Positions 2,712-61,572 of a stretch of 64,000 nt of DNA are shown here, piece after piece (positions within the stretch are counted from its first letter, which is position 1; each line of letters begins with the position of its first letter). Source of the DNA: Candidatus Marinacidobacterales bacterium (lineage in GTDB: Bacteria > Acidobacteriota > Vicinamibacteria > Marinacidobacterales > SMYC01); contig CBDCYI010000004.1 in NCBI GenBank assembly GCA_965224085.1, positions 1,504,001 through 1,568,000 of the forward strand. Reading direction: 5' to 3'. The notes below the pieces were generated by a model. The model was not told the DNA's origin. It saw nothing but the letters and a program-made list of their open reading frames with translations, and made no database searches. Both the position numbers and the translations under genes were made by a program.

Positions 2712-4190
2712 TTAGCCGCCGAACAGCTCGATCCCGAAAATCCGCGCCGCGATGAGGATCGCCGTCATTCCGGTGAAGATCACGAGGCTCGCCCAGCCGA
2801 ACCACGCATCGAAAGTGCTGGGGTAGAAGTAACGGTCCTTTTTCGAGATAACGGTGAAGCAGTAATAGAGATTTAGCCCGAAGATGATAGGGGCTACGAA
2901 AAAGGCGAGCGCGGACGCGACGAGCACGAGCTGGACGGGACGGTCGACGCCGGCAACGAACGCAACGGATGCGATGAGGGAGTAGAACATCGTCAGGCGA
3001 TAGATGTTGAACTCCGAGTACCATTTGCTGCGGTGCTCGTCCGTAAGATCCTCGCGCGCGATACCGGAGAGAGCCGCCGTCTTTCGGAAGAGATTCCGGC
3101 AACAAGCGCCGACCACTCTTGGCCAGCCATCGAAGTAGTTGAACGCCGTCGAAAAGGTTGCCGCGAGAGCGCCAATGAGAAAAACGATCATCATCCACGG
3201 GCCGACGCTCTCGGTGAAGATCTGGGCAATCTGACCGATAACGGCCCGCCCCTCGACTTCGCTTGGATAGATCCACACGGCCGCGAGGGCGAGAAAGATC
3301 GTCGCGATGATGAAGGAGATGATGTGTCCGGCGCGAAAGTCCCAAAGGCCGATGCGGAACCACCGCCGGCAATATTCGAGGGCATGGGGCGAGAGCTTGG
3401 ATGTATCGACCGAAAGGTCTTCTTTGCTCGAGCTGAAGGAGTCGAACGTCGCCACGAGCCCGCGATGCTCGAGATGATCGCGGATGCGGCCCATGCCTGC
3501 CTTCTTCGCTTTGCCCCATTCCGAAGCCTGGAGTGAGACGTCGATACCCGTGGGAAGAAGTCCGAGAAAGGCTGCGAGAATGAGCCACGATCCGTCCGGC
3601 GTCTCGAAGATGAAGAAATGCGCCATCCCGGAAAGCGGGGCAGGCGAGCGCAGAAAAACGCCGACCGTTGAGAGCAGCAAGACGCCCGCGCAAATTTTCG
3701 TCACGAGCTCGACGACGCGGTAACGTCCGCTCAGGATGAGAGCCACGCTGAGGACGCCGATTGCGAGGGCAAAAGTGTAAGACGGGATGTCGACACCGAA
3801 GTAGTACAGCGAAAAGAAGTAGGCGACCGCCGCAGCCGCCGTGAGCCGTCCCGCTTGGCCAAGAGCGGCTTGCAGAATCGTCGTGATGAGCACGTACCAA
3901 ACCGGCCACTTGTGCCACGCCGTGGAATAAGCGTCGAGCATGCTGCGGCCTGTGGCGTTCGTAAAGCGAAACGCCATCTCAAAACCGTAATATTTGAAGA
4001 TATAAGCGACCGGGATTGCCCACAGAAGCGCGAACTCGAACCGGCCGCCCGCGACCGGCGCGGTAACGAGATGACTGGTACCGATGCCGGTCATCATCAA
4101 GATCAATCCGGGGCCGAACTGCCGAGCGAGACCGAGCGGGGTCATCTCGGGAAGAGGAAGAGATTCTAGAACGTCGTCGTTGTCCGTCAT
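2712..4190 (-). CDS. NRAMP-like divalent metal/APC-superfamily transporter
   Basis: FGPGL...GIGTSHLV...GGRFEFALLW N-terminal motif, many TM segments; start placed at ATG 4190. Confidence 0.7.
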   Translation of the reverse strand: MTDNDDVLESLPLPEMTPLGLARQFGPGLILMMTGIGTSHLVTAPVAGGRFEFALLWAIPVAYIFKYYGFEMAFRFTNATGRSMLDAYSTAWHKWPVWYVLITTILQAALGQAGRLTAAAAVAYFFSLYYFGVDIPSYTFALAIGVLSVALILSGRYRVVELVTKICAGVLLLSTVGVFLRSPAPLSGMAHFFIFETPDGSWLILAAFLGLLPTGIDVSLQASEWGKAKKAGMGRIRDHLEHRGLVATFDSFSSSKEDLSVDTSKLSPHALEYCRRWFRIGLWDFRAGHIISFIIATIFLALAAVWIYPSEVEGRAVIGQIAQIFTESVGPWMMIVFLIGALAATFSTAFNYFDGWPRVVGACCRNLFRKTAALSGIAREDLTDEHRSKWYSEFNIYRLTMFYSLIASVAFVAGVDRPVQLVLVASALAFFVAPIIFGLNLYYCFTVISKKDRYFYPSTFDAWFGWASLVIFTGMTAILIAARIFGIELFGG

Positions 4191-6705: not shown

Positions 6706-7002
6706 ATGGCACGTCCCATTTGGCGTCACTCGCATGATAGCTCGGAGGATGAGGAGTGGTCCGAGCCCGATGAGCCCGAGCTCGAGGACGACGATCTCGA
6801 CGACGATGACGAGAGTGACGAAGAAGATCAGGGTGACGAAGAAGATCAGGGTGACGAAGAAGATCAGGGCGACGAAGAAGATCAGGGCGACGAAGAAGAC
6901 GAGTCATTGGTCGAGGACGATAGTGTTTGGGGCGAGGACGACGCTTCACTCGACGAGAACGACGAGAACGACGAGGAAGATTGGGATGACGGCGCGAGCT
7001 GA
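6706..7002 (+). CDS. Small hyper-acidic low-complexity protein
   Basis: 98 aa, 55 D/E by hand count, no Lys; TATAAT 8 nt upstream of ATG; fills the gap between convergent genes. Confidence 0.6.
   Translation: MARPIWRHSHDSSEDEEWSEPDEPELEDDDLDDDDESDEEDQGDEEDQGDEEDQGDEEDQGDEEDESLVEDDSVWGEDDASLDENDENDEEDWDDGAS
6817..6900 (+). repeat. 18-bp tandem repeat GACGAAGAAGATCAGGG(T/C), 4 copies plus a partial (DEEDQG)
   Basis: Read directly from sequence. Confidence 0.95.
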
Positions 7003-7047: not shown

Positions 7048-8235
7048 CTATTCCGACTCTCCATGAATCGTCGTATCGGGCCGATAGTGCTCCCAGGCGA
7101 ACCAAACCGCGAAAGTCGAGATCAAGCTTTGTAGCTTCTTGCCGAAAAAAGGTCCGGAGACGGCTGCGCCGCTTACAGGGTTCCACCGGGAGCCCGTCTG
7201 TGCGTCTTCGAGTTGTTCATCCTTCGTGAGGTGGAAGCTCAGAGCGCGGCCATCGACTTGGCGTTCGTAGACCCGCGCCGTCGAGAGGTCTTTGCTCAAA
7301 TAGACCGCAATTGGAGCCCCTTCGAACCGTTCTTCGACGAAGCGTTTGTCGGCCAGCCGCCGGAGGAGATAGGCGCGCGCTTCGACATGGCCTTCGAGCC
7401 CAACGATGAGGTCGTTGCCGCGAGCGCGGCCCGGGTCCATGTTCGCGACCTTCTCGAAGGTCTCTTTCGTGAAACGCGAGTTGTAGGGAACGGAGCGCTT
7501 CACGTAAACGGTCGTCTTCGGGTGAAGCGCTTTCCACTGAGCCCAGGTCGTCATCGTGGAAGGAAGCTTCTCGAGCGCTGCGCCTTGCATCTTCCCGCTC
7601 ACGGCTTTGCCGAAGAGCTGGCTCCAGTGCGACTGCGTCTCGTCGTCATACATGATGAGCGTGCCTTCATCGACGCCGACGACGCCAAAGTTGTGCTTCT
7701 TGCCATCGAACTCACGGGCGTACACGACGCCGCTATGGTCGATGGGTCACCAGGAGGGGGCGATGGCCTCACCGCCGAGCTCGTCGTTCACGATTTCGTT
7801 GAAAGGCCCGTTCATGTAGTTTACCGGATAGGCGCGCGGCTGGACGTTGATGACGACACCCATGACCATGTCCACGTCGCCGATCTCGACGTCGTCGGCG
7901 GAGACAATCTCGGGATTGACGTTCAAGGGGAAGCCGCCTTTTTGCAGATGCGTAAAGTTTGAGCGGTCCCTCGGCTCGGCGGGGCCAGTCGCGGAGCGTT
8001 GCTGCATCTTGCCGTACTCGTCGAAGGTGACGTAGCCGTCGCCATTGGCGTCGAAACGCGCCACGGCCCTCTCCGGGAGACTCAAATCGCCGACAGGAAC
8101 TTTGGCGTCGATGTCTTTGTCGAAGACGCCGTTGAGATGGAATCTCGCTTCCATCATCTTCTGCATCATCTCTGGATCGGGCCTTTGCGCGGCGAAAAGC
8201 AGCACCGGAACCAGCACCATGAAGAGTGTTTTCAT
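7048..8235 (-). CDS. Exported EF-hand + DUF3179 selenoprotein (UGA=Sec at 7749-7747)
   Basis: ORFs 7747-8235 and 7048-7725 are in frame across one TGA: EIVNDELGGEAIAPSW-U-PIDHSGVVYAR, aligning with DUF3179 VTYCPLC; EF-hand DANGDGYVTFDEY; signal peptide; RBS AAAGGAGGT. Confidence 0.85.
7703..7746 (-). promoter_or_regulatory. Putative bacterial SECIS hairpin directly after the UGA
   Basis: mRNA CCAUCGA...GGCGU-CGUGU-ACGCC...UCGAUGG forms lower and upper stems with a GU-containing apical loop about 20 nt from the UGA. Confidence 0.65.
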
Positions 8236-8261
8236 CGTGACCTCCTTTCGACTGGATCAAT

Positions 8262-8987
8262 CTAGCGTTGACGGTATCCTTGGTCAAACGAGGCAGCTCG
8301 GTAAACGATACGGCCGCCGAACACGGTCATCTCGACCTTGCACTCCGCAATCCGCTCGGGTGGGATTTTCAGGATGTTCTCGGACAAAACCGCGAGATCG
8401 CCGAGCTCGCCGGGCTCGAGCCGAGACGCCGCGTAGCGAGGGACGGCGTTCTCGACGTTCAGTTTCTCGCTCGAAACGCGCCGACCATCGAGATCGAGGC
8501 CGGTCACGGCTCTGTGGAGCCTGACAAGAGGGTCGATCGTGGTTTCCGGCCAGCCGCTTCCGAAGCGTACACCGCCCCGAGCGTCGCCCCGAGCCTCGAT
8601 GGTTCGCAGGGGGAGTGCTTCGGGGAGAGTGCTATCGAGCGCGCGCACGCTCGTGATGCCGAAGCGGTGGAGATAGGTCGGGGCGTCGGATGGCGTGACG
8701 CCCGTCTCCTCGAGCCAAGCAGCGCCGGCCGCGAGATCCACACGGTCGTCGTGAAAGCCTGGAAGAAGCAGTCGTCCATCGAGGTCGACGATGTGTGTGT
8801 CTTCACCGATGAGGGCCTCGACGTTGCCGATCGCAAGGATGCGTCCATCCGCTATCGCGAGCCCGTCCGCCCAAGGGGCCTCGGCATTCAGCGTATAGAT
8901 GGCGCCGCCCCAAAAGACAAGCTCGGCAGGTGACGATGGCGGGGACGAGCACGCGGTCAGAACTGCGAGTGCTAGGAATCGAATCAA
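8262..8987 (-). CDS. Miniaturised amidohydrolase_3 (YtcJ-like) lipoprotein lacking metal ligands
   Basis: Lipobox LTAC; N-terminal IVDLDGRLLLPGFHD and C-terminal LEPGELGDLAVLSENIL...MTVFGGRIVY retained; only 241 aa; HxH replaced by RVD. Confidence 0.65.
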   Translation of the reverse strand: MIRFLALAVLTACSSPPSSPAELVFWGGAIYTLNAEAPWADGLAIADGRILAIGNVEALIGEDTHIVDLDGRLLLPGFHDDRVDLAAGAAWLEETGVTPSDAPTYLHRFGITSVRALDSTLPEALPLRTIEARGDARGGVRFGSGWPETTIDPLVRLHRAVTGLDLDGRRVSSEKLNVENAVPRYAASRLEPGELGDLAVLSENILKIPPERIAECKVEMTVFGGRIVYRAASFDQGYRQR

Positions 8988-9016: not shown

Positions 9017-10700
9017 GTACCCGTCCTGACAGGTGTAAGAGGTTGAGAAAAAAGGGGTAATCGCAAATTTAGGGCTAGCCTTCTGAGGGAGTGTCGTTTA
9101 GTATCGAGTCGACAAAAACGCAGATTCTAAACGACTTAACTCCAAAGGAGACCAGCCCTAAATGCGAAAAACGATCAACCCACAACCAAGCCTATGCGAG
9201 CCCTGGCTGGAGGTGGAGCACGCGCGCGAGCTCGAAGCGATCTCGTCGGTGCTCGATGCCCATCCTAAGCTGAATGAGCTGGTACTGCAAGACCTGAGGT
9301 CGGTCACCCCATCGGCAGGGAGCGATGTTGGTCGTGGGGGAATGAGCGCGGAGCAGGTTCTCCGGGCGTTGTTGGTCAAGCAGCTGAATCAGTTCACCTA
9401 TCGGGAGCTGGCGTTTCACTTGGCAGACTCTCGAAGCTATCGGACGTTTTGCCAGCTCGGCATCATAGAGCCGAGCCCGTCGAAGTCGACCCTAGCAGCA
9501 AACATCAAAGCCGTGAAGTTCGAAACGCTGGAGAAAATCAACCGAGAGTTGGTGAGTGTTGCCGAGAAGACCGCGATCGAAAAAGGAAGAAAAGTACGAG
9601 TGGACTGCACGGTAGTGGAGTCGAATATTCATTCTCCTACGGACTCCGAGCTTCTTTATGACTGCGTCCGAGTTCTCACTCGCCTCATGTGCCGAACTCG
9701 CGAACTGCTGGGTACAGTAGTGGTCTTCGGCAATCGAACGCGTCGAGCGAAGAGACGTCGACTGGGAGTTCTAAACGCGAAGGATAAGGAACAAAGGCGT
9801 CGCGTCTATCGAGATCTACTGAAGGTGTCGGAAGAAACCTATCGCTCCGCTCAACGCGTTGCAGACCAGTTGGACGAGTCCGGCTTGACCGAGCCGGTGA
9901 AGCGAGTGAGTGCGGAGAAGATCGCCGCGGATTTTAAGCACTTTCTCGTCCTCACCGAAAAAGTCATCAACCAAACTCGGCGTAGAGTGATTGATGAAGA
10001 GCGTGTGCCTGCGGAGGAAAAGGTCGTTTCGATCTTCGAAGAACACACCGACATTATTCGCAAAGACCGGCGCGAGACTCTCTACGGTCACAAGGTGTGT
10101 TTGACTGGTGGCTCGTCCTCGATGATTTTGGATTGCGTGATCTTGGATGGGAATCCGTCCGATTCAACTCTCGCGGAAACCATGATCGACCGTCAAGTCG
10201 AACTCTACGAACGGGCCCCGCGCCAGGTTGCCTACGATGGCGCGTTTTCTTCAAAGGCAAACTTGGAAGCCATCAAAGGCAAGGGAGTTGAAGATGTTGC
10301 CTTTACCAAGGCTCACTTCGCGGTGACCGATATGGTCAAGAGTTCCTGGGTCTATCAACGCCTACGGCGATTTCGCTGCGGAATCGAAGGCGTCATTTCG
10401 TTCTTGAAACGAGTCTTTGGTCTCGACCGATGCACATGGCGCTCATTGCCTTCTTTCAAATCCTACGTATGGAGTTCCATCATCACCTGCAACCTGTTGG
10501 TAATGGCAAGGCACCTATTACGATAATAATGATTGCTCTTACTGCGTTTATAGCCATGGATTGCTGACGATTCGCCTCTCGTTTCGTCCAAGATTTTCAT
10601 TCGCTTCCGAGCCTACGAGGTGCCGACTGAAAACGTATAATACCCACATCTTCGATAGGCCTCTCGTACACCACAAGTTATGGTGTTTCTGGACAGGAAC
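9017..10700 (+). mobile_element. ISNCY-family insertion sequence with 6-bp target duplication TAGTTG
   Basis: Imperfect TIRs GTACCCGTCCTGAC and (reverse complement) GTTCCTGTCCAGAA; TAGTTG at 9011-9016 and 10701-10706. Confidence 0.85.
9162..10526 (+). CDS. ISNCY-family DDE transposase
   Basis: RVDCTVVESNIHSPTDS, EKVVSIFEEHTDII, GIEGVISFLKR. Confidence 0.9.
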   Translation: MRKTINPQPSLCEPWLEVEHARELEAISSVLDAHPKLNELVLQDLRSVTPSAGSDVGRGGMSAEQVLRALLVKQLNQFTYRELAFHLADSRSYRTFCQLGIIEPSPSKSTLAANIKAVKFETLEKINRELVSVAEKTAIEKGRKVRVDCTVVESNIHSPTDSELLYDCVRVLTRLMCRTRELLGTVVVFGNRTRRAKRRRLGVLNAKDKEQRRRVYRDLLKVSEETYRSAQRVADQLDESGLTEPVKRVSAEKIAADFKHFLVLTEKVINQTRRRVIDEERVPAEEKVVSIFEEHTDIIRKDRRETLYGHKVCLTGGSSSMILDCVILDGNPSDSTLAETMIDRQVELYERAPRQVAYDGAFSSKANLEAIKGKGVEDVAFTKAHFAVTDMVKSSWVYQRLRRFRCGIEGVISFLKRVFGLDRCTWRSLPSFKSYVWSSIITCNLLVMARHLLR

Positions 10701-11680: not shown

Positions 11681-11812
11681 ATGACCTACATCCTCCTCCT
11701 GATCGCGGTGGTGATTTGGGGCTCGACCTTCGTCGCAACGAAGATCTGCCTGGAGCACATGGGCACGCTCCAGCTCGTAGTGAGCCGTTTCCTCATTGCT
11801 GCTCCCAGGTAG
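11681..11812 (+). pseudogene. N-terminal fragment of a DMT/EamA transporter
   Basis: MTYILLLIAVVIWGSTFVATKICLEHMGTLQLVVSRFLIA then stop (not in ORF track). Confidence 0.7.
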
Positions 11813-12144
11813 GCGGGGTCGGTGGCGCCGGTGAGCGTTTGCACCGTTCCCGCGAGCGCGGCGACATTCTCGAAGCTCTGTTGCTCGCGCTGCAGATCGT
11901 CATATTCGGTGAACGTGAGAGGCGCGCGCACCCGTGAAAGGCCCTCGTTCCTGGACCACACGAAGGCGATCGTCTCCGCAGCTTCGAAGGCGAGCGGTGT
12001 TATGAGCACCTTGCTCACGATGGAGAAAAGTGTCGTCGTCGTGCCCGTCGCGAGGGCGAGGGTGAGAACGACAACGAGCGTAAACCCTTTGCGCTTCAAT
12101 AGCATGCGCGGGCCGCATCTCAAATCGCTAAGAAAAGCATCCAT
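11806..12144 (-). pseudogene. N-terminal fragment of an ADOP/MacB-like ABC permease
   Basis: DLRCGPRMLLKRKGFTLVVVLTLALATG...LFSIV..VLITPL; about 110 aa of a normally much longer protein. Confidence 0.8.
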
Positions 12145-18660: not shown

Positions 18661-19959
18661 TTGTCCGAGGTGTCGCAGAGCGGGCTACGCTCGCAATCTC
18701 TTAGGGAAAGTCTTCGGAACGACTATGGGCACGTACGTTCAGAAACGGAGGTTCTCGCTTCGTCGATCACGCCCGAGGAGGCGCCGATCCAGTCGATGGA
18801 GGACGTGAGCCCGACCAAATGGCATCTGGGCCACACCAGCTGGTTTTTCGAAACGTTCCTTCTTCGGCGCGACGACGCGTATCGGTCGACGCGCGAGGAG
18901 TTCAAGGTCCTCTTCAATTCCTACTACAACACCGTCGGCAAGCAGCATTCTCGACCCCGGCGCGGGATGCTCGGTCGCCCCGCGCTCGATGAGATTCTCG
19001 ATTACCGTCATGAAACGGATGCGAGCATGGGCTCGTTTCTCGACAACGCAAGCGACGCGACTCTCGAGGAATGCGCAGGCACGGTCCGTACAGGGATCCA
19101 CCACGAGCAGCAGCATCAGGAGCTCATGCTGACCGATATTCTTCACGTGCATTGGAGCAACCCGCTGAGGCCCGCTTATCGCGAGCCGGGTCCGCCGAGC
19201 TGTGCGGTCGCGAAGCCGCTCGAATGGTTCGCTTATGCCGAGGGCGTGCAGCGCATCGGCCACGACGGCGATGGCTTTGCGTTCGACAATGAAAATCCGC
19301 GCCACCGCGTTTTCGTGCACCCCTTCGAGCTCGCGTCCAGACTCGTCACCGCGGGTGAGTTCATGGAGTTCATCGGGGCGGGAGGCTATCAGCGATCCGA
19401 GTTTTGGTTGAGCGATGGCTGGACGCGGGTACAACGCGAGGCGTGGAAAGCGCCCCTTTATTGGGAGTGCGAGCAGGGGACGTGGTGGCGCATGACACTT
19501 CACGGCATGCTGCCTGTTGATCCCAACGCTCCCATCTGTCATGTGAGCTACTACGAAGCGGACGCTTATGCGCGCTTCCGAGGGGAGCGTCTTCCTAGCG
19601 AAGCCGAGTGGGAGATCGCGGCCGCGAGCGTCCCCATCGACGGCAACTGGCAAGAGAGTGAGCATCTCGTGCCGATGGACGCCGCCTCGAGCGCTCACCT
19701 ACCTCACCAGGATGCTCCGCGGCAGCTCTATGGCGACGTGTGGGAGTGGACGCGCAGTGCCTACCTTGCCTATCCGGGCTACCGCACGAGCGAAGGTGCT
19801 CTCGGCGAATATAACGGAAAATTCATGTGCAATCAGATGGTGCTTCGCGGCGGCTCCTGCGCGACCCCCGCGGGTCACATTCGACCGAGCTATCGAAATT
19901 TCTTCTACCCGAAGGACCGCTGGCAGTTCTCGGGCATTCGCCTCGCGAAGGACGTATGA
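18661..19959 (+). CDS. egtB: Ergothioneine biosynthesis sulfoxide synthase
   Basis: QSMEDVSPTKWHLGHTSWFFE, LFNSYY, HHEQQHQEL, GALGEYNGKFM, FGE-sulfatase C-terminal domain. Confidence 0.92.
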   Translation: MSEVSQSGLRSQSLRESLRNDYGHVRSETEVLASSITPEEAPIQSMEDVSPTKWHLGHTSWFFETFLLRRDDAYRSTREEFKVLFNSYYNTVGKQHSRPRRGMLGRPALDEILDYRHETDASMGSFLDNASDATLEECAGTVRTGIHHEQQHQELMLTDILHVHWSNPLRPAYREPGPPSCAVAKPLEWFAYAEGVQRIGHDGDGFAFDNENPRHRVFVHPFELASRLVTAGEFMEFIGAGGYQRSEFWLSDGWTRVQREAWKAPLYWECEQGTWWRMTLHGMLPVDPNAPICHVSYYEADAYARFRGERLPSEAEWEIAAASVPIDGNWQESEHLVPMDAASSAHLPHQDAPRQLYGDVWEWTRSAYLAYPGYRTSEGALGEYNGKFMCNQMVLRGGSCATPAGHIRPSYRNFFYPKDRWQFSGIRLAKDV

Positions 19960-29524: not shown

Positions 29525-29950
29525 TCAGCTCATGTAGCGTTCGTACCAGAGTTCGAAGACGAGAAGCGTCCAGAGCTGCTTGCGGTTGTCGTGCGTGCCC
29601 TCGGCGTGCTGCGCGAGAAGTTTTTGCACGTAGTCCGGATTCAAGAAACCTTCGCGCTTCAGTTTGGCCGGCGCGAACTGATCCTGGACGAGCTCTTTCA
29701 AGTCGGTGTTGAGCCAATAGGCGACGGGCACGTTGAAGCCCTTCTTCTTACGCGTGAGCACTTCGTCGGGAAGGATGCCTTCCATGGCTTTCTTGAGGAT
29801 GAACTTCGACGACTTCGATGTCAGGCCGTGCAATTTGAGCTCTCGAGGCACTTCGGCGACCCATTCGGTGAGGCGGTGGTTCAGAAGCGGCACACGCACC
29901 TCGAGTGAGTTGGCCATGCTGGCGCGGTCGACTTTTGTCAGGATGTCGCT
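29525..29950 (-). pseudogene. asnB: C-terminal remnant of asparagine synthase (glutamine-hydrolysing), cut by IS5
   Basis: DILTKVDRASMANSLEVRVP, RKKKGFNVP, LWTLLVFELW; begins at the IS terminal repeat. Confidence 0.85.
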
Positions 29951-31039
29951 GCCTTGGTGCACAACTCCGATAGAGGCCGAGAGCTCGCTTGGCCCCGACT
30001 CCCATCATCCGATCATCTCGCTATCAGGCATCCCGAGCGCCGTCATGGTGTTGAGAATCTTGCACCCGATCCTTGCCTCGACTCTCTGTGCCGCCAACCC
30101 TCTCGCTCGCATCGCTGAGCCCACGATAGCCTTGTAGCGATGGAACGTTGTCTCGACTTTGCTCCGTTTGCTGTAGCCCGATTCTGTGTGCCACTTTCGT
30201 TTGCCGAGCCGAGCTTGTGCTGCAATGTTGCGATTGCGCTGTCGGCTGCTCGCCGGCCCCGATGCGAGCTGGGCGCCCTTGCGCGGCGGTATCAGCACCC
30301 TCGGCGAGCGATGAGCGCTGTGATTCTCGATTGCCTCATAGACGCCGCTGGCGTCGTATGCGGTGTCAGCTCTGGCCGATGAGATGGGACTGTCGCTCTG
30401 TCTGACAAGCGATGCAACCCGCGATGAATCGCGGGCTCTTTTGCTCGTCAGCTCGCAGGCGACGACTTCGCCAGTCTGCTCGTCGACACACAGATGGAGC
30501 TTGCGATAGTCCCTGCTATTTGGTGCTCTGCGCAGCTGGCCGGCGTGGACAGCGAGACCGCTGCTGTCGATCAAGATGTGCAACGGCGTCTTCTGCTTGT
30601 CTTGGTAGAAGGGGACCTTACCCAGCTTCGCCTTGCGCCTCGAGATCGTGGTGTGATCGGGCACATCATTGTCTAGCTTCATCAGAGCGAACAACGATCG
30701 CAGCAATCCCTCGCTCTGTCTAGATGACAGATGAAACACCATGCCCAGGGTGACAGCCGTCTCGATGGCGTGGTTCGAGTACTTGCGTTGACGGCCCGGT
30801 TTCCTCCTCCTCGGCCGGGGCGCGTCCCAGTTCACAAGCTTGCCGGCGGTGAGCGAGATCCAGACGGTCAGGCTCCCACGGTTGCGTAGACCCGCCTCAT
30901 ATTCACGCCAATTCCTCACGCGATAGGCCTTCTTCACATACTTCCGCTGAGTGCGTTTGAAAATACTCATGGGGAACCTCGAATCCGTGAGTAAAGGACA
31001 ATTGTGGACCGAGATCGCGAGTTGTGCACCAAGGCAGCG
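29947..31039 (-). mobile_element. IS5-family (IS903-like) insertion sequence
   Basis: Perfect 21-bp inverted repeat CGCTGCCTTGGTGCACAACTC (29947-29967 / 31019-31039); no target duplication. Confidence 0.88.
30005..30970 (-). CDS. IS5-family transposase
   Basis: YRVRNWREYEAGLRNRGSLTVW, PDHTTISRR, IDSSGL, ADTAYD, GYSKRSKVETTFHRYK. Confidence 0.92.
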   Translation of the reverse strand: MSIFKRTQRKYVKKAYRVRNWREYEAGLRNRGSLTVWISLTAGKLVNWDAPRPRRRKPGRQRKYSNHAIETAVTLGMVFHLSSRQSEGLLRSLFALMKLDNDVPDHTTISRRKAKLGKVPFYQDKQKTPLHILIDSSGLAVHAGQLRRAPNSRDYRKLHLCVDEQTGEVVACELTSKRARDSSRVASLVRQSDSPISSARADTAYDASGVYEAIENHSAHRSPRVLIPPRKGAQLASGPASSRQRNRNIAAQARLGKRKWHTESGYSKRSKVETTFHRYKAIVGSAMRARGLAAQRVEARIGCKILNTMTALGMPDSEMIG

Positions 31040-31109
31040 GTGCGAAGGGATCCCGCCTTCCCGTCGCGTTAGGAAGAAACCATCCCTGTCACGCGGTCTA
31101 TCCGCTAAA

Positions 31110-32460
31110 TCACCGACCCAGGCGCTCGCGCGCATCGGCGGCTTCGGGAAGATCCCAATCCGCGTCGCCCCAGTGCTCGAGAAAACGCTCGAGGTTGCGA
31201 TGGCCTTCTTCCTGTTCGCCAAGATCCATCTGAAGAAGGCCCAGTTCGTAGAGGGTCGCACGTAGAGCACCGGATGATCGGCCCGCTCGAACCCGGGTTT
31301 CGAGTGCCTCGACCGCTTTGGGCTTGTCACCCGACGCCAGATAGGCTTGCACGAGACCGTTCCGGAAGGCGGCACCCGAGCTCGACCAGGTAGCCATGAA
31401 ATCGAAGTATTGGTTTTGCTCGGCGAGGCGCTCGAGGATGAGAAGAGCGCGGGCGGTATCTCTCTCGACAAGGGCCAGCTCGGCTAGAAGCGCGTCGTGA
31501 TGCATCGGGCCAGAGGGTCCGCTGGCGGTCGCTGCCATTTTAGCTTAGCGAGCCTTTCGAGATGCTGCTCGGCTTTCGCTATGTCGCCTCCGAGCCAGAG
31601 AGCGAACCAACCCGAAAAATAGTGACCGCGCGGGCTCGCGGGCTGAAGCGCCAGAGCGCGCTCCATCTCGGCCAAAGCGCCTTCGGAATCCTTCAGACTC
31701 AGGAGCGCGGCAAGCGAAATGATAGCTGTGGCAGGCGCACCGGTTCCCAAGCCCTCTCCTTCCCTGAAGACCGCCGTCGCAGCTGCCTCACGATAGTTTT
31801 CGATGGCCTTTTCGAAACAACCGCGAGTCGCGAAGAAGTGACCCGTTGCGGCCAGCCGTCCCGCCTTCAAGAAACCTTGAAGGTTACTGAGTGGAACCGT
31901 TTCGATCTCTTGTTCCAGGTCCCACCGGGATGCAACCGCCGCCCAAGTCGGCCTCCAAATCAGACCGAAGGGTGTGGCGGGATGCTCGGTGAGACGAAGC
32001 GCCTCGTCGTCGTCGACGTCGTACGCAGCAACGACCGCTCGCGCGTCCTGCAAGGCTTTCTCCACCACCTGAGTCAACGCGACCGGCAGCTCCGCCCGCA
32101 CGTCGGTCAGTGGTGGTGGTTCTGGGTGCAGAACCGCGTCTAGCACTCGGGTGGTCGTGTCTCCGGCAAAGGCGGGTTCCCCGTCGCGTTTTCAAACAGC
32201 AGGCTTCCTAGGGAGAACACATCGCTTCTTCCGTCCACCGCCTCCCCAGTGCCTGCTCCGGAGACATGTGCGCGACCGTGCCCATCACCACCCCCGCATC
32301 GGTCAACCGACCTACGGTCGACGCGTCGCTCGACTCCGATGCCGCCGCAATTTGTTTCGCCAGCCCGAAGTCGAGGATCTTGACGGCGCCCAGCTCCGAG
32401 ATCATCACGTTGGGAGGCTTGAGGTCCCGGTGAATGGACATCTGTTTCCCGAAACCTGAT
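31110..32460 (-). pseudogene. Degraded Ser/Thr kinase-TPR gene (several frameshifts and deletions)
   Basis: [31 protein letters not shown] and TPR-like pieces spread over four ORFs. Confidence 0.8.
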
Positions 32461-39035: not shown

Positions 39036-40325
39036 TCATTTCGCGCACGTGCGGAAACCCGCGACCACATCCGCGCGATCGGGCAGGAAGAAATTTCGAT
39101 AGCTGTTGTTGATGAGGCGCGACCGCGTCGCCCACGCGCCGCCTTTGAGCACTTTGTGATAGCCGAACCACGGAGCCGAGTACTCTCGATAGGGATGATC
39201 GACGAGATAGCCGGGAAAAGGATAGAAGGCCGACGCGGTCCACTCCCAAACGTTCCCGATCATTTGGCGACAGCCATAGGCGCTGTCGGACGCTGGATAG
39301 GCGGCCACGTCCACGGTCCCGAGGTGGCGTGAGTCGAGATTGGCGAGCTCGGCGGAAGGCTCGGTGTCACCCCAAGGATAGCCGCCGCTCACAGCGGCGC
39401 TCGCCGCCATGTCCCACTCGGCTTCGGTCGGCAAGCGGCGGCGCGCCCAACGGCAATAAGCTTCCGCCTCGTACCAGCTCACATGGCATACCGGGGCGTG
39501 AGGCTCAAGGCGCACGTAGCGGTCGAAGTTCCTTCTCAGCCAGCCCCGCTCGTCACGCACCCAGTAATTGGGGTGCGCAGCACCCGTGCTCGAGCGGATG
39601 ACCCACCCCTCGGGGCTCCAAAACTCGCGCTCGGTATAACCACCATCGTCGACGAAGGCGGCGAACGCTTCGTTCGTGACCGGCGCGCGCGCGATGCGAA
39701 ATGCCTGAACTTCGACAGGATGACCCCACTTCTCGTTGTCGAAGAGAAACGATGCGTCTTTGGATGCGCCGAGCTGATGCCGCCCACCGGGAATCTCGAC
39801 GTCGCCGGGTAAATCGCCTTCTTCTCCTGGCGCGGCGGCGGTCGCACGCAGCCGGGGCGCCGGATATTCCAGAGTCTGGCGCGTATAGGTAAGCGCCTCA
39901 CCGTGCATGTCTTCGTGAAGGGTGCAAAGAAGCGCGAGATAAGTCTCCCGAGGGTTCGCTTCGCCGCTCCCCAAGCGTTCAGCGAAGGCCTCGAAGACAT
40001 CGTTCATATAGGCGATCGTCTTCTCCCGCGACGGGAGCGGGAGCGACCAGCGGGTGTCATGAGCGACGTGAAAGGAATCGAACAGCTCGTCGGCGCCGCG
40101 AAGCAGTTGCGGGTCGCGGCCGAGCTCGCGCAAGAAAAAGACTTCGAAGAAAAACGCGATGTGCCCTAGCTCCCAGCGCGGGGGATTCACGTTCGAAATA
40201 TGCGGGACTTCGAGCTGCTCGTCATCGAGGTCGTCTAGGAGCGCTATCGTTCGCGCGCGCGCGTCGCGTGCTTGGTCGATGAGCGTCGCGGCCGGCAAGC
40301 AGTGGTGTTTGTCGGAGAGTGCCAC
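39036..40325 (-). CDS. senA: SenA-like selenoneine synthase (DinB + FGE-sulfatase, EgtB paralogue)
   Basis: VNPPRWELGH, VAHDTRWSLPLP, HEDMHGEALTYTRQTL, PYREYSAPWFG resemble the SenA clade rather than the EgtB at 18661. Confidence 0.7.
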   Translation of the reverse strand: MALSDKHHCLPAATLIDQARDARARTIALLDDLDDEQLEVPHISNVNPPRWELGHIAFFFEVFFLRELGRDPQLLRGADELFDSFHVAHDTRWSLPLPSREKTIAYMNDVFEAFAERLGSGEANPRETYLALLCTLHEDMHGEALTYTRQTLEYPAPRLRATAAAPGEEGDLPGDVEIPGGRHQLGASKDASFLFDNEKWGHPVEVQAFRIARAPVTNEAFAAFVDDGGYTEREFWSPEGWVIRSSTGAAHPNYWVRDERGWLRRNFDRYVRLEPHAPVCHVSWYEAEAYCRWARRRLPTEAEWDMAASAAVSGGYPWGDTEPSAELANLDSRHLGTVDVAAYPASDSAYGCRQMIGNVWEWTASAFYPFPGYLVDHPYREYSAPWFGYHKVLKGGAWATRSRLINNSYRNFFLPDRADVVAGFRTCAK

Positions 40326-47170: not shown

Positions 47171-47402
47171 GATACAATTTGCCTTGGTGCCTTGGAAGAG
47201 ATTCGAGGCGTCCCTACTCCTCGTCCTCGTTGCGGGAGAGCCAAAACGAACGGATCGCTGACCGTAGGGAAACGCCCCAATATGGTATACTATACGTTAA
47301 CTTTTAGCCCCGTAAACCCACGGCGGACTGGACCTTACGGCCACCGAGCCGGTGCGTCGCTTTCCAGAATCGCCTCTTCAGGGGCCCCGGGAGAGTTGCG
47401 AG

Positions 47403-48623
47403 ATGACGCAGTTCCTCGCCAAGGTGGGCACGCTCGCCGGTGACATCGAAGAGCTTGCCATGAACGCGGACACCGAAAACGTCCTGCGCGACGAGCTTCG
47501 AGAAAAAGGATACCACGTCTTTTGGGTCCGGCGGAGCCTCGGCCTTGGCGGGATAAGAAATCCCTTCAGCCGGCGGCAGCGCATCTCCCACACTGAGTTC
47601 ACCCTCTTTAACCAGGAGCTGGCGGCGCTTCTCAGAGCTGGGCTTGCTTTGCTGCAATGCCTCGACATCATGCTCGAGCGGAGGAGCAACCCGTTTTTCA
47701 AGCAAGTCCTAATCGATATCCGTAACAAGGTCAAATCCGGAATGGCACTCTCGGAGGCATTCCGCTCGCATGGCGATCTCTTCCCGCGTATCTACTCGGC
47801 GTCCCTCGTCGCGGGCGAGAAGAGCGGCGGCCTCGATACCGTGCTAAAGGCTTATGTGCGCTACCTCAAGCTCAGCGAAGCCACGCGCAAGAAGGTCATC
47901 GCCGCGCTCGTCTACCCAGCCTTCCTCTTTGCGACGCTCGCGTTCGCCACGGCTTTCTTGCTCCTCTGGGTGATCCCCCGTTTCGCCGGCTTCTTCGAAG
48001 GATTCGGCGCCGAGCTCCCCATCCTCACGGTCATCCTCATGGCCGTCGCAACTACGTTGCGCGATCACATCGTGATCCTCACGACGGCGACGCTTGCGGG
48101 ATGCATCGTCTTCTTTTTGTGGTCGAAGCGCGACGGCTCCAAAAACATCATCGACCGCTTCCTGCTGAAGCTGCCATTTCTCGGTCCCATATTTCACCTC
48201 TTCGCGACTTCGCAGTTGACGCGCTCGCTCGGGACGCTGCTTTCTGGCGGCATCCCCCTCGTCCAGGCCATCGACATCTCCGCGGGCTCGATCAGCAATC
48301 GTCATATCGGCAGCGCGGTCATGCCCGTCGCCGAGCGTGTACGTGAGGGAAAAGCCTTCTCGATCAGTTTGGAGAAAACGGGCGAGTTCTCAAATCTCAC
48401 CATTGAGATGGTAAAGGTCGGTGAGAACACCGGCGATCTCGCCGAAATGCTTCAAAACGTCGCGGATTTCGCCGATGAAGAAATCGACAACCGGTTGAAC
48501 CTCATGCTCTCCATGCTCGAGCCCATTGTGCTCCTGTTCATGGGCGGCCTCGTGGCCATGATTCTTCTCGCCATCTATCTGCCGATGTTCGATTTGATCA
48601 ACGCGGCGCGGTCAGGAGTGTAG
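47403..48623 (+). CDS. T2SS/T4P inner-membrane platform protein GspF/PilC
   Basis: FNQELAALLRAGL, AGEKSGGL, VGENTGDL, LEPIVLLFMG. Confidence 0.92.
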   Translation: MTQFLAKVGTLAGDIEELAMNADTENVLRDELREKGYHVFWVRRSLGLGGIRNPFSRRQRISHTEFTLFNQELAALLRAGLALLQCLDIMLERRSNPFFKQVLIDIRNKVKSGMALSEAFRSHGDLFPRIYSASLVAGEKSGGLDTVLKAYVRYLKLSEATRKKVIAALVYPAFLFATLAFATAFLLLWVIPRFAGFFEGFGAELPILTVILMAVATTLRDHIVILTTATLAGCIVFFLWSKRDGSKNIIDRFLLKLPFLGPIFHLFATSQLTRSLGTLLSGGIPLVQAIDISAGSISNRHIGSAVMPVAERVREGKAFSISLEKTGEFSNLTIEMVKVGENTGDLAEMLQNVADFADEEIDNRLNLMLSMLEPIVLLFMGGLVAMILLAIYLPMFDLINAARSGV

Positions 48624-48632
48624 GACGGAGCC

Positions 48633-50294
48633 ATGGCGACGCCCCGCGACACGAATCAGTTCGTGCCCGAGCTCGACCCGGAAGGCACTGCGCTCACACT
48701 GGAAGAGGCGCGGAACAAAGAGAATGACGACGCGAAACGACTCGCCGAGCGTTGCCGCCTCGAGTTCATCGATCTGACGAGCTTTCAGCCCGACCAAGAG
48801 CTGTTCCAGAGCGTCCCAGTGGATCTCATGTTCCGCTACAACTTCCTTCCCTATCGGAAAGAGGACGGGAAGCTCGTTGTCGTCACGGCCGACCCGACCA
48901 ACGTGCCCGCGATGGACGAGGTCGCGTCGATCTTGAATACGCCCGTGCTCGCCGCGGTGGGCACCGATACCGCGATCCAGGAGCTTCTAAAAAAAAGCCA
49001 GAGCGCCCAGCGCGTGCTCGAGGAAGCCTCCGAGAGCTTCCACATGGAGATCATCCGCGAGGACGACGCGGGCGAAGAAACGCTCTCGATCGACCGCCTC
49101 ACGGATACGTCGAGCCCCATCATCCGGCTCGTCGACTCGGCCGTCTACAACGCATTGAACCGCCGGGCTTCCGACATCCACATCGAGACCCGCGACGAAG
49201 AGGTCGTCATCAAGTACCGCATCGACGGCGCGCTGACGCGGGCGATGAAGCCCATCCCCAAGGCCCATCACTCAGAGATCATCAGCCGCATCAAAGTCAT
49301 GGCGGAACTCGACATCGCCGAAAAGCGCGTCCCTCAGGACGGGCGTTTTCGACTCAAGATCAAGGGGCGCCGGATCGATTTTCGCGTCTCGATCATGCCG
49401 AGCATCCACGGAGAAGACGCCGTCATCCGCATTCTCGACAAAGAGTCCATAAGCGAGCGCTTTACCGAGCTAAGACTCGACATCCTGGGCATGGCAGAGG
49501 CCGAAGTCAAGCGCATTCGTCGTTTCATTCACGAGCCCTACGGGATGTTTCTCGTGACCGGGCCTACCGGTAGCGGCAAGACGACAACGCTCTACGCCGC
49601 GCTTTCCGAGATCTACAACGAAGAGGACAAGATCATCACGATTGAAGACCCCGTCGAATATCAGCTCAAAGGCGTCACCCAGATTCCCATCAACGAGAAA
49701 AAAGGCCTCACTTTTTCACGGGGGCTACGCTCCATTCTGCGTCACGATCCCGACAAGGTCATGGTGGGAGAGATCCGAGACCCGGAGACGGCGCAGATCG
49801 CCATCAACGCCGCGTTGACGGGACATCTTGTTTTCACGACGGTCCACGCGAACAACGTCATCGACGTTATCGGGCGCTTCTTGAATATGGGTGTCGAGCC
49901 TTACAACTTCGTCTCGTCGCTCAACTGCATCCTCGCGCAACGGCTCATCCGAACGATCTGCGCGTTCTGCAAGAAGCCGTACAGGGCCGATGCGACCCTT
50001 CTCGAGGACTCGGCGCTCGATCCGGCGCGCTACGGCGAGCACACGTTCTATCGCGGTGAAGGCTGCATTCAATGCTCGGGCTCGGGCTATAAAGGAAGGG
50101 AGGCTATCAGCGAGCTTCTCGGATTGAGCGACGAGATCCGCGAGATGCTCGTCGAAAGGCGGCCTGCGGTGGAGATCAAGAAAGCCGCGAAGCAATCCGG
50201 CATGGTCTTTCTCCGGGACTCGGCGGTCGAAAAGGCGCTTTCGGGGCAATCCACGCTCGAGGAGATCAACCGCGTCACTTTCGTGGCGTCTTGA
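48633..50294 (+). CDS. T2SS/T4P assembly ATPase GspE/PilB
   Basis: ASDIHIE, LDIAEKRVPQDGRF, GPTGSGKTTT, LRHDPD, GEIRD, Zn-binding CxxC pairs. Confidence 0.95.
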   Translation: MATPRDTNQFVPELDPEGTALTLEEARNKENDDAKRLAERCRLEFIDLTSFQPDQELFQSVPVDLMFRYNFLPYRKEDGKLVVVTADPTNVPAMDEVASILNTPVLAAVGTDTAIQELLKKSQSAQRVLEEASESFHMEIIREDDAGEETLSIDRLTDTSSPIIRLVDSAVYNALNRRASDIHIETRDEEVVIKYRIDGALTRAMKPIPKAHHSEIISRIKVMAELDIAEKRVPQDGRFRLKIKGRRIDFRVSIMPSIHGEDAVIRILDKESISERFTELRLDILGMAEAEVKRIRRFIHEPYGMFLVTGPTGSGKTTTLYAALSEIYNEEDKIITIEDPVEYQLKGVTQIPINEKKGLTFSRGLRSILRHDPDKVMVGEIRDPETAQIAINAALTGHLVFTTVHANNVIDVIGRFLNMGVEPYNFVSSLNCILAQRLIRTICAFCKKPYRADATLLEDSALDPARYGEHTFYRGEGCIQCSGSGYKGREAISELLGLSDEIREMLVERRPAVEIKKAAKQSGMVFLRDSAVEKALSGQSTLEEINRVTFVAS

Positions 50295-50318
50295 GGCCCA
50301 CACAGCAAGACGATAAGG

Positions 50319-51317
50319 ATGAGGATGAGAAGACGCAGCCCCTGGATGCGCTGGCTCCTCGACCCCGAGCCACCGGGGCTCGGTCTGGATTTGCGCACCG
50401 GCGAGCTTTCGTTCGCACGCTTGTCGGCGAAACGCGCGAAGCCCGAGCTGGATCTGTGTGTTACCTCGCCTTTGCCGACGAACTGTCTCGCGTTCAGCAT
50501 GCTCGAGCCCAACATCCTCGACCCGAAAGCGCTCGGCCAGTCGATCGAGAACATCATGTTCGGCGTGGGCGCGAATGGAGCCAAGCGGCTTGCGCTAACG
50601 CTCCCCGACTATGTCGCACGCATCTCGGTCGTCGAGCTCGCCGAAGCTCCCCGTTCGACGTCGGAGGTGATCGACATGCTCAAATTTCGACTCAAGAAGT
50701 CTCTCGGCTTCGATACCGAAAAAGCGCGGCTCGCGTTCACGCGGCTTCCCGGCATAACACCCGCCTACCTCACCGGTGTCATGCACGAATCGGTCGTCGG
50801 GCAATACGAGGACTTTCTCACTGAGCTCGGTTTCGAGGTTGGGCTCGTGATCCCGGCGAGCATGAGCCTGCTCCAGGTCCTCGCTCCCGTTGCCAGCAGC
50901 AAATTGGCGCCCGGGGCGGATTATTTCTTCGTCAATGTCGAGCGGGAATATTTCACGGTCAGTCTGGTAAGAGATCGAGAGGTTCCGGTTCTGACACGAA
51001 CGTTGGGGCTGCGCTCGCAGGGCGATGACGGCCCGCCCGTCATCTACAGTGAAGACGATCTCGTGCGGGAGATCATCCCGACCGCCATTTATTACAGGGA
51101 GAAGCTCAAAGGTTCTTCTCTCGAGCGGATTTATTACCGCTCGCTCAGGCCGGATCTGATCCACCTACGCGAGCTCCTGGAGGAACAATTCGAAGCGCCG
51201 ACCGAGCCGCTCAATCTGAGAAGTGCTGTGGGCGTCGCGGAGAATCTGAAGATGGACGCGGCCCTCGCCGATTCCGTGGGCGCCGCGGCCGGGGCGGCGC
51301 TCGGTAGCGCTGCCTGA
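50319..51317 (+). CDS. PilM-like protein
   Basis: GLDL start, actin-like pattern, position between ATPase and PilN. Confidence 0.7.
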   Translation: MRMRRRSPWMRWLLDPEPPGLGLDLRTGELSFARLSAKRAKPELDLCVTSPLPTNCLAFSMLEPNILDPKALGQSIENIMFGVGANGAKRLALTLPDYVARISVVELAEAPRSTSEVIDMLKFRLKKSLGFDTEKARLAFTRLPGITPAYLTGVMHESVVGQYEDFLTELGFEVGLVIPASMSLLQVLAPVASSKLAPGADYFFVNVEREYFTVSLVRDREVPVLTRTLGLRSQGDDGPPVIYSEDDLVREIIPTAIYYREKLKGSSLERIYYRSLRPDLIHLRELLEEQFEAPTEPLNLRSAVGVAENLKMDAALADSVGAAAGAALGSAA

Positions 51318-51330
51318 GACCTGACGGACG

Positions 51331-52041
51331 ATGTCTAACCGTTTCAATTTCGCGCGCCGCCCTTTCGTCAATGAAAGGCTTCCGCGATTGGTTTCCATCG
51401 CGGCGGCGACACTCGTCATCGGCCTCACGCTCGTCCACGTTTTCTTCCTCGCCCGCTACCTCGTCCGTGAGCAAGAGGAGCTCGACGTGCAGGTCGCCGA
51501 GCTACGGGACGAGCGCACCGCCACCGAATCACGCATCGCGAGCGCCGCGGCAAGCGTCGCTCAGGGTCGAACTGCGCTCGGCAACGAGAGAACGGTGTTT
51601 CTCGCGCGCATCTACCGGCTCAAGAGCTTCTCCTGGACAGGCCTTTTCAACGAGCTCGAGGCGATCACGCCGAGAGCCGTGCGCATTACTTCGATCGCGC
51701 CGCTCGAAGTCGACGGCGAGATTTCGGTGACGCTCACGCTCGTAGGGCGCACGCTCCAAAACGTGCTCGAGATGGTAAGCGCGCTCGAGGGGAGCTCGTT
51801 CTTTGCGACCGTGTTTCCTCTGGACGAAGTCGATTTGGCCGATCAGGGTGCCGGCACAAACAGCGGCATCGCGGCCACGCTACGGCTTCGTTATGTGGAT
51901 TACGAGCTCACGCCAGTCGAGCCGGAGCCTGAGGCGAAACGTGAGACCGATGAAGACACGACGTCCGGTGACGCGGATTCGGCCGAAGCCGACATCCCTC
52001 AAGCGCCCGAGCCCGGACCGAATGCGGAGCGCAACCCATGA
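51331..52041 (+). CDS. PilN-like protein
   Basis: NFARRPF, TM helix, coiled coil, SWTGLFNELE...VRITSI. Confidence 0.8.
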   Translation: MSNRFNFARRPFVNERLPRLVSIAAATLVIGLTLVHVFFLARYLVREQEELDVQVAELRDERTATESRIASAAASVAQGRTALGNERTVFLARIYRLKSFSWTGLFNELEAITPRAVRITSIAPLEVDGEISVTLTLVGRTLQNVLEMVSALEGSSFFATVFPLDEVDLADQGAGTNSGIAATLRLRYVDYELTPVEPEPEAKRETDEDTTSGDADSAEADIPQAPEPGPNAERNP

Positions 52042-52631
52042 ACGCGTTTCGCGCTTTTCTGGAGAATCTGAAGAAGAGACAAAAGGCGTTCGTCCGCCTC
52101 TTGATTCTACTCGTCGTGAACGGTGTGCTCTTCGCAGCCGTGACCTATCGGCTCGCCAACAAGCAGGAGCTCCTCGCCGACGAACAAGAACGGCTGAGAT
52201 TCGAGCTCGAAGAGAAACAGACTGAGCTCGAAGCGCTGTCTTTGGAAGAAGCCCGGGCGACGGCCAACACGAACGCCGTCACCGATTTCTGGGCCGATGT
52301 CGTCAAAACGCGCGTTCCGGGACTCACGGAAGCTTTGGAGGAGATCGACCGCCTCACCAAGGAATCGAATGTCATCAAAGGCCGCACCGCCTATGATCGC
52401 GACTTGATGGATGTCGGCCTCGAGCAGATCAAAGCCACCATGCCGGTCGAGGGCACCTATTTCGACCTCGTGCGCTTCATCAACCGGCTCGAGCGCTCAG
52501 AGCGCTTCTTCCTCGTGGAGGAAGTGCGACTCGCGCAACGGGAGACTCAGGGGACGACGATCCGGCTCGATTGCAGCATTTCCTTCTACCTCAAGGCGGG
52601 GACGACAACCGCCGAGGAGGCTGGACCGTGA
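52038..52631 (+). CDS. PilO/GspM-like protein
   Basis: TM, coiled coil, GTYFDLVRFINRLE. Confidence 0.8.
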   Translation: MNAFRAFLENLKKRQKAFVRLLILLVVNGVLFAAVTYRLANKQELLADEQERLRFELEEKQTELEALSLEEARATANTNAVTDFWADVVKTRVPGLTEALEEIDRLTKESNVIKGRTAYDRDLMDVGLEQIKATMPVEGTYFDLVRFINRLERSERFFLVEEVRLAQRETQGTTIRLDCSISFYLKAGTTTAEEAGP

Positions 52632-54064: not shown

Positions 54065-54070
54065 GGAAAT

Positions 54071-61556: not shown

Positions 61557-61572
61557 TAATGAGGAGAAACCC

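Follow-up and report, generated by a model that had tools for sequence, protein, structure and literature searches.

The DNA analysed here is a 64-kb stretch (the window; 64,000 nucleotides, nt) of a contig assigned to a Candidatus Marinacidobacterales bacterium, and its subject is a minus-strand gene near one end of it. Two open reading frames (ORFs) lie there in the same frame: the ORF at 7747..8235 codes for 162 amino acids (aa) with the C-terminal end ...GGEAIAPSW and stops at the TGA at 7747-7749, past which the frame reads PIDHSGVVYAREF (PIDHSGVV...) and runs through the ORF at 7048..7725 up to the TAG at 7048-7050 (minus strand). Joined via this one TGA, as a first-pass annotation of the sequence had proposed, they give a continuous frame of 395 residues with U, for selenocysteine (Sec), at position 163. 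The ORF pair is in fact a single gene for an exported DUF3179 protein, the in-frame UGA of which very probably encodes Sec. The gene and its central features are as follows:

7048..8235, minus strand: proposed full coding sequence of the DUF3179 selenoprotein, with TGA163 read as Sec; 395 residues plus the TAG stop
7747..7749, minus strand: in-frame TGA, proposed Sec codon, residue 163, in the context UGG-UGA-C
7072..7938, minus strand: DUF3179 domain, residues 100-388, with tandem repeats at ca. 117-246 and 270-393

The Pfam family DUF3179 (PF11376) matches the read-through protein in a single unbroken alignment spanning the TGA (residues 100-388; profile positions 2-292 of 292), with a score of 183.4 bits vs. 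a cut-off of 27 and an E-value of 8.5e-54, which bears out the family assignment made in the first-pass annotation. No NCBIfam model was found to match the same protein. A general reassignment of UGA was ruled out, TGA being the terminator of 15 of the 33 Pfam-supported ORFs in the window; as TGA is a normal stop in this DNA, recoding at codon 163 must therefore be site-specific.

The homologue search returned 126 matches at E <= 0.001, and the counts given here cover the 120 that were listed. Ninety of these are C-terminal pieces of ca. 222-252 aa (28-97% identity), which begin at query residue 165, 170 or 171, i.e. at the first usable start after the TGA and 2-8 codons past its column; the remainder comprises 24 matches spanning column 163 and six other partial matches. 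As for the N-terminal half, a search of short proteins with residues 1-162 gave 106 matches, of which 101 (including the window's own ORF) end exactly in ...[ST]W, the other five being cut or divergent. The join of the two ORFs is far beyond chance, given that this stop column is shared by over 100 clusters in the databases.

At the DNA level, a search of genome contigs yielded four related loci (L001 to L004). TGA occupies column 163 in L001, from an Acidobacteria metagenome-assembled genome (MAG; 89% identity), in L002 (64%) and in L003, from a Phycisphaeraceae MAG (35%), which together with the window makes four of four DNA loci compared at this column. The fourth locus (L004; Acidobacteria MAG contig, 3001-3399 and upstream) is a frame-broken remnant without the TGA region, which matches residues 199-395 only, at 70% identity and across several frames; this copy has either decayed or been poorly assembled. 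The ratio of nonsynonymous to synonymous substitution rates (dN/dS) is ca. 0.07 upstream of the TGA and 0.33 downstream when calculated against L001, and 0.11 and 0.17, respectively, against L002; by these sequence comparisons, both halves of the gene are under purifying selection.

Concerning the residue at the UGA, the read-through protein was aligned with 24 full-length homologues in a first alignment, and with 127 more homologues in alignment A3, which holds roughly full-length, single-domain proteins, fragments and long fusions being excluded. Column 163 of A3 is Cys in 121 of the 128 rows and Ser in seven, so that the Cys expected opposite the UGA in the first-pass annotation is indeed found there. 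From this column on, 89 rows have the motif CxxC, 15 have CxxA and six have CxxD (including the query, with C standing for U), the other 18 rows carrying other residues. Likewise, among the listed homologues spanning column 163 (n = 24), 23 have Cys and one has Ser. The alignments thus place U163 where the family has the first Cys of its CxxC motif. The second Cys had been described as a resolving Cys replaced by Asp. The U-x-x-D motif is confirmed, the window, L001 and L002 all reading U-P-I-D-H-S-G, but the loss of the second Cys is not specific to Sec proteins: it is already absent from the closest Cys homologues, which read W-C-S-[IV]-D-Y-S-G at 47-53% identity, and from others that read W-C-P-I-A-H-S-G at 44-48%. 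The Sec motif published for DUF3179, UxxC/UxxT, fits L003 (U-H-L-C-H-N-G) and not the window, L001 or L002.

The full-length AlphaFold2 model has a mean predicted local distance difference test score (pLDDT) of 86.7, and exceeds 95 across residues 100-390. When the N-terminal and C-terminal halves of the domain were compared with hhalign, they matched with a probability of 100% (E 2.7e-40), and the DUF3179 domain therefore consists of a unit of ca. 125 residues duplicated in tandem, with the Sec/Cys motif in the first repeat only. No solved structure related by sequence was found at E up to 1. The only compact fold matches were Rieske-type ferredoxins and Rieske subunits (Foldseek probability ca. 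1.0), with target-normalised template modelling (TM) scores of 0.5-0.67 over 89-113 columns; they are weak, their E-values lying between 6.5e-3 and 7e-2, all above 1e-3. No Pfam Rieske family matched at E up to 0.1, and no CxH box is visible in the protein sequence. The Rieske-like fold suggested by the model is a lead rather than a result.

Upstream of the DUF3179 domain, the protein carries a putative export signal and a putative calcium-binding module:

8188..8235, minus strand: signal-peptide-like N-terminus, residues 1-16, MKTLFMVLVPVLLFAA, read from the sequence
7993..8175, minus strand: EF-hand pair module, residues 21-81, with a degenerate first loop (ca. 39-50) and a canonical second loop (62-73)
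8017..8052, minus strand: canonical 12-residue EF-hand loop DANGDGYVTFDE, residues 62-73, D62 and E73 being invariant in 54 aligned relatives

By eye, the N-terminus shows Lys2, a 13-residue hydrophobic stretch and a ...FAA-Q site with an unfavourable Phe at -3, and residues 2-15 are helical in both structure models. The N-termini of relatives have clearer sites (ASA-S or SAA-Q), and some Cys homologues have a lipobox-like L-L-A-C. As the Cys homologues also look signal- or lipoprotein-like at this end, export would be a trait of the family; the signal peptide announced in the first-pass annotation is therefore present as a signal-like N-terminus, and is not an addition peculiar to this protein.

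The EF-hand claim holds, with one canonical loop and a modelled pair. DANGDGYVTFDE agrees with the pattern D-x-[DNS]-x-[DNS]-G-x-[ILV]-x-x-x-[DE] within a paired helix-loop-helix. The Pfam EF-hand models score below their cut-offs (EF-hand_1, 20.7 vs. 25.4 bits; EF-hand_5, 17.2 vs. 25.9; EF-hand_6, 14.9 vs. 25), and some relatives carry precomputed PF00036 or PF13202 matches. AlphaFold2, run on an alignment of N-terminal fragments (A4), models residues 21-81 at a pLDDT of 88-96 as two helix-loop-helix units joined by a beta bridge (46-47/68-69), and such a modelled bridge between loops is the signature of an EF-hand pair. The top Foldseek matches of this model are lobes of calmodulin and troponin C, which are weak (E 0.055 or worse). 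Of the 106 short relatives, 53 show the loop pattern in its strict form, while in the other half the signal peptide leads directly into the DUF3179 domain; found in about half of the relatives, the EF-hand module therefore marks a sub-clade of the Sec clade.

Immediately downstream of the UGA, the transcript can form a hairpin resembling a selenocysteine insertion sequence (SECIS), more precisely the bacterial type (bSECIS):

7703..7745, minus strand: SECIS-like two-stem hairpin, starting 1 nt past the TGA; 50-nt fold of -18.7 kcal/mol
7714..7733, minus strand: conserved upper stem-loop, composed of 4 base pairs (bp), a 1-nt 3' bulge, 3 bp and the loop CGUGU

The upper stem begins 13 nt and the apical loop 20 nt past the UGA, and a potential lower stem (CCAUCGA...UCGAUGG) encloses the inner stem-loop. 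The hairpin was compared in four sequences, i.e. the window, L001, L002 and L003. Three of them (window, L001 and L003) have the apical loop CGUGU, and L002 has GUC. All 28 cells of the 7-bp upper stem are paired across the four sequences; two of its pairs change on both sides (G:C to A:U in one, and G:U, G:C or A:U in the other), and the bulged base varies between C, U and A. The bSECIS consensus has a loop of 3-9 nt with a G in its first two positions, an upper stem of 4-16 bp, a spacing of 16-37 nt and a minimum free energy (MFE) of at most -7.5 kcal/mol (PMC13188914, legend of Fig. 2). The window hairpin satisfies the four constraints: its 5-nt loop has G and U at positions 2 and 3, respectively, the spacing is 20 nt and the MFE is -18.7 kcal/mol. 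Its 50-nt fold has a z-score of -2.16, five of 200 shuffles being equally good, and the upper hairpin alone has z-scores of -0.7 to -1.8. Rfam gave nothing at gathering score in the whole window, and around the TGA site chance-level matches only (E 1.1 or worse).

With respect to selenium use, one sign comes from elsewhere in the window. The ORF at 39036-40325 (minus strand), with DinB_2 and FGE-sulfatase domains, reaches 502.8 bits against the NCBIfam model for SenA (selenoneine synthase), whose cut-off is 420. SenA chemistry requires selenophosphate, and this match, as an indirect sign of selenium use, hints at a second selenium trait in the genome. No senB- or senC-like gene is adjacent to this ORF, its neighbours being a Ser/Thr kinase with PD40 repeats and a DUF4388-PilZ protein. 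A second DinB_2 and FGE-sulfatase protein, at 18661-19959 (plus strand), scores 563.9 bits vs. 360 with EgtB, of ergothioneine biosynthesis; as both cut-offs are passed, the window holds both an EgtB and a SenA paralogue. Finally, a script found 72 TGA-joined frame pairs in the window, and no domain crosses the TGA in the 25 that were scanned with Pfam, namely those touching plausible genes.

On this basis, one gene would give rise to an exported protein of 395 residues, composed of a signal-peptide-like N-terminus, an EF-hand pair and two homologous, beta-rich DUF3179 repeats. The UGA at codon 163 would most likely be recoded to Sec with the help of SelB and tRNA-Sec, the stem-loop starting 13 nt downstream acting as the signal. 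Sec would replace the first Cys of CxxC and, the second Cys being absent (U-P-I-D-H), may act as a lone nucleophile. The likeliest role would be that of an extracytoplasmic, selenol-based redox protein, possibly recycled by, or exchanging with, a periplasmic thioredoxin of the TlpA type, while the modelled EF-hand pair may bind Ca2+ for stability or regulation.

A number of results speak against this explanation or leave parts of it with less support. TGA itself was seen only at the DNA loci, the stop codon behind the database protein fragments not being visible. No selA, selB, selD or tRNA-Sec lies within the 64-kb window, which has no tRNA of any kind, and no SelA-, SelB- or SelD-type match to Pfam or NCBIfam was found among the window ORFs scanned (sets of 53, 8 and 33). 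Nor is the neighbourhood conserved: the window and L001 are syntenic (truncated Amidohydro_3-like gene, DUF3179, acidic ORF, NamZ and aminotransferase IV), but L002, with metH upstream, and L003, with a DAO fragment upstream, share nothing with them. As for the hairpin, L003 does not retain the lower stem (82% of cells paired), and in our own implementation of the published constraints the same test is passed by 281 of 1500 random in-frame sites in window genes (ca. 19%) and by 86 of 374 sites within the DUF3179 gene. The 81-nt fold is no more stable than dinucleotide shuffles (z 0.07); with 1000 synonymous recodings per test, 24-26% fold equally well in the window, and 10-27% across the four loci (z -0.6 to -1.3); and the covariation score is equalled by 68 of 500 shuffles. 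No drop in synonymous changes over the hairpin was seen either vs. L001 (one of 17 codons, 13% gene-wide) or vs. L002 (six of 14 codons, 52% gene-wide). The stability of the hairpin was consequently rejected as independent support on the shuffle and synonymous-recoding controls, and the high background pass rate makes the hairpin weak evidence. The SECIS hairpin with a GU loop reported in the first-pass annotation is thus present and fits the published bSECIS model, but its statistical backing is poor; it is compatible with a SECIS and no proof of one. The redox role, for its part, is based on fusions of the domain in distant family members with CxxC.

These fusions were surveyed in 20 DUF3179 proteins of at least 448 aa, out of 150 listed homologues. 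An N-terminal AhpC-TSA/Redoxin domain, with the thioredoxin fold of TlpA and ResA, is found in five of the 20; the others include VWA (four proteins) and fn3 (four, one protein having both), TPR (one) and an ArsP_1 permease (one), together with one weak B3_4 match and five proteins showing DUF3179 alone. Two of the long chains carry several copies of the domain: P0122 (1587 aa) has five DUF3179 stretches with fn3 repeats, and P0130 (1004 aa) two DUF3179 stretches plus a Redoxin domain, an arrangement that suggests cell-surface arrays of the domain. The recurrence of TlpA-like fusions is the best available hint of function and points to Cys/Sec redox chemistry outside the cytoplasm; the role of the window protein is plausibly extracytoplasmic redox.

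Among the readings without Sec, UGA163 might mostly terminate translation, so that an EF-hand protein of 162 residues would be made and perhaps, from a start of its own, a C-terminal protein of 225 residues. Such an outcome would agree with the weak hairpin evidence, with the Sec genes not being seen in the window and with a GTG 21 nt past the TGA, which is the start used by gene callers; however, no ribosome-binding site is evident ahead of that GTG, the stop would cut the first DUF3179 repeat within a strand that is modelled with confidence (156-163), exactly at the family's conserved Cys, and the split is kept at the same codon down to 35% identity. Termination is for these reasons very improbable. 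No greater weight is given to the idea that a near-cognate tRNA (Trp, Cys or Arg) reads UGA163, or that the genome has lost Sec decoding, an ordinary residue being inserted. The same silence of the 64-kb window on Sec machinery can be quoted in its favour, as can the C that follows the UGA in all four loci, a context that can favour read-through. Yet over 100 clusters would not have kept a leaky design if changing a single base, to TGC or TGT, gives Cys, as the sister clades have, and the family has documented Sec members. Least credible of all is a pseudogene, or a TGA that is a sequencing error: the degraded or frame-broken L004 would suit it, but the same TGA stands in three independent intact loci, the stop column recurs in 101 of the 106 N-terminal and 90 of the 120 listed C-terminal entries, and dN/dS is well below 1 on both sides. 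Conservation effectively refutes this last explanation; with the stop conserved and dN/dS low, pseudogene and error are excluded and site-specific recoding is therefore the natural reading. All in all, we are confident that 7048-8235 is a real selenoprotein gene.

If Sec is accepted, the main rival to the redox role is that the residue binds a metal or metalloid such as Cu, Hg, Zn or As and does not serve as a redox nucleophile, DUF3179 being an extracytoplasmic metal handler whose TlpA-like partner merely keeps the ligand reduced. CxxC is also a classic metal site, D166 and H167 adjoin U163, one of the 20 long relatives is fused to the ArsP_1 permease, and metal-cluster proteins of the Rieske type lead the compact fold matches. 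These matches are nevertheless weak (E 6.5e-3 or worse), positions +3 (D/A/V/S) and +4 (H/Y/L) are not conserved across the clade, and no metal genes lie beside the gene in any of the four loci, so that a ligand role is judged unlikely. Returning to the selenol-based redox protein, a bolder version of it would make the Sec clade a distinct class, namely a Ca2+-dependent extracytoplasmic one-selenol oxidoreductase built on two cluster-less Rieske-like repeats, with U-x-x-D derived from a Rieske-type Cys box and a TlpA-like thioredoxin as electron donor. We offer this as speculation, with the odds well against it. If it were true, external Ca2+ would be coupled to selenol reactivity via the EF-hand pair, giving a calcium-regulated secreted bacterial selenoenzyme, for which we know of no precedent, no search having been made for one.

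Two features ahead of the gene relate to its expression:

8241..8248, minus strand: Shine-Dalgarno-like AAAGGAGG, 5 nt ahead of the ATG, read from the sequence
8259..8287, minus strand: sigma-70-like promoter match TTGACC-17-TAGATT, a consensus match only (one found vs. 0.4 expected)

Directly upstream, the ORF at 8262-8987 (minus strand) codes for a lipoprotein-like protein of 241 aa that matches only positions 432-472 of the 472 of Amidohydro_3. Its N-terminus is presumably amidohydrolase-like, its HxH box reads HDDR, and the protein is apparently the shell of an amidohydrolase that lacks the catalytic barrel. The same truncated form exists in L001 (2205-2936, plus strand, 243 aa), and the adjacent insertion sequence (IS), an ISNCY family transposase at 9162-10526 (plus strand; 437.8 bits), is therefore not its cause. 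On the other side, convergent with the selenoprotein gene, an extremely acidic ORF of 98 aa (6706-7002, plus strand) contains 4.7 copies of an 18-nt repeat at 6815-6899, encoding GDEEDQ. It has a counterpart in L001 (4191-4496, minus strand), with a conserved N-terminus (18 of 24 residues identical), and no family match was found for it in the domain scans.

Elsewhere in the window, a DDE_Tnp_1-type transposase at 30005-31471 (minus strand) is followed, past a TGA and in frame, by 29528-30004, which codes for the last third of an asparagine synthase; this remnant suggests insertion of an IS into that gene, and an IS200-like Y1 transposase lies at 61047-61574 (minus strand). A 152-aa ORF at 11686-12144 (minus strand) corresponds to the first 110 of the 803 positions of the ADOP family duplicated permease model and is a gene fragment; like the nearest related locus, L001 from an Acidobacteria MAG, it gives the window an Acidobacteria-like look. 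Finally, a cluster at 47352-57630 (plus strand), which looks like a type IV pilus or a type II secretion-like apparatus, encodes F-type and E-type (MshEN) proteins of the type II secretion system (T2SS), a secretin with a C-terminal cohesin domain and then a TIG-domain protein.

For the DUF3179 family, a putative single catalytic Cys/Sec, the duplication, the weak Rieske-like signal and the TlpA-like fusions now offer a handle on function; together, these features suggest an extracytoplasmic redox role that can be tested experimentally. The gene itself is mainly an annotation problem. As the first-pass annotation had foreseen, genes of this kind are routinely split in databases, where no fewer than 101 N-terminal and 90 C-terminal clusters figure as truncated proteins in their own right; the number of selenoproteins counted in Acidobacteria and in allied lineages of soil and sediment is therefore likely too low. 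For comparison, three selenoprotein families and four selenoproteins are given for Acidobacteria in a 2006 survey (PMC1794560, Table 2).

The existence of Sec-containing DUF3179 members, also asserted at the outset, has support in the literature: two reviews tabulate the DUF3179 domain-containing protein as a selenoprotein family with the motif UxxC/T, and both credit it to Zhang & Gladyshev 2007, from the metagenome of the Olavius symbionts (PMC9312934, PMC13188914), while one further paper merely names a DUF3179 protein in a table. The window protein shares with these listed selenoproteins the Pfam family and the Sec column, i.e. the first Cys of CxxC, and the Phycisphaeraceae locus L003 shows the published form, U-H-L-C, at that column. 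It differs from them by its U-P-I-D, with neither C nor T at +3, by the N-terminal EF-hand pair of its clade (53 of the 106 N-terminal fragments) and by its Acidobacteria-like lineage. UxxD is absent from the DUF3179 rows of the two review tables, the supplements of which may list it (PMC9312934, PMC13188914).

Of the Cys-containing DUF3179 proteins, the sister clades are represented by P0017, P0019, P0026, P0027 and P0123 (W-C-S-[IV]-D-Y-S-G) and by P0041-P0071 (W-C-P-I-A-H-S-G). Like the window protein, they have a single Cys position and signal- or lipoprotein-like N-termini, with 45-53% identity over the whole domain; unlike it, they have Cys for Sec and no EF-hand module. The TlpA/ResA-like fusions (P0130, P0227, P0231, P0261 and P0266) share the DUF3179 domain but are distant members; a thioredoxin-like domain is absent from the window protein, nor is one encoded adjacent to it. 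Concerning the EF-hands, calmodulin and troponin C have in common with the modelled module the canonical 12-residue loop, the two helix-loop-helix units and the short inter-loop beta bridge, the differences being the 11 residues between the loops and the degenerate first loop (Ala at position 6, with positions 1 and 5 variable). With the bSECIS model and the Escherichia coli fdhF SECIS, the window hairpin shares its place as a stem-loop within the coding sequence directly past the UGA, a small G-U loop, the 20-nt spacing and a bulged upper stem; these are likenesses of structure, and the specificity of the hairpin here is low, given the 19% background pass rate. As a whole, the window protein belongs to an already listed selenoprotein family and is not a new kind of system, its UxxD site and EF-hand pair being modest extensions of what has been tabulated.

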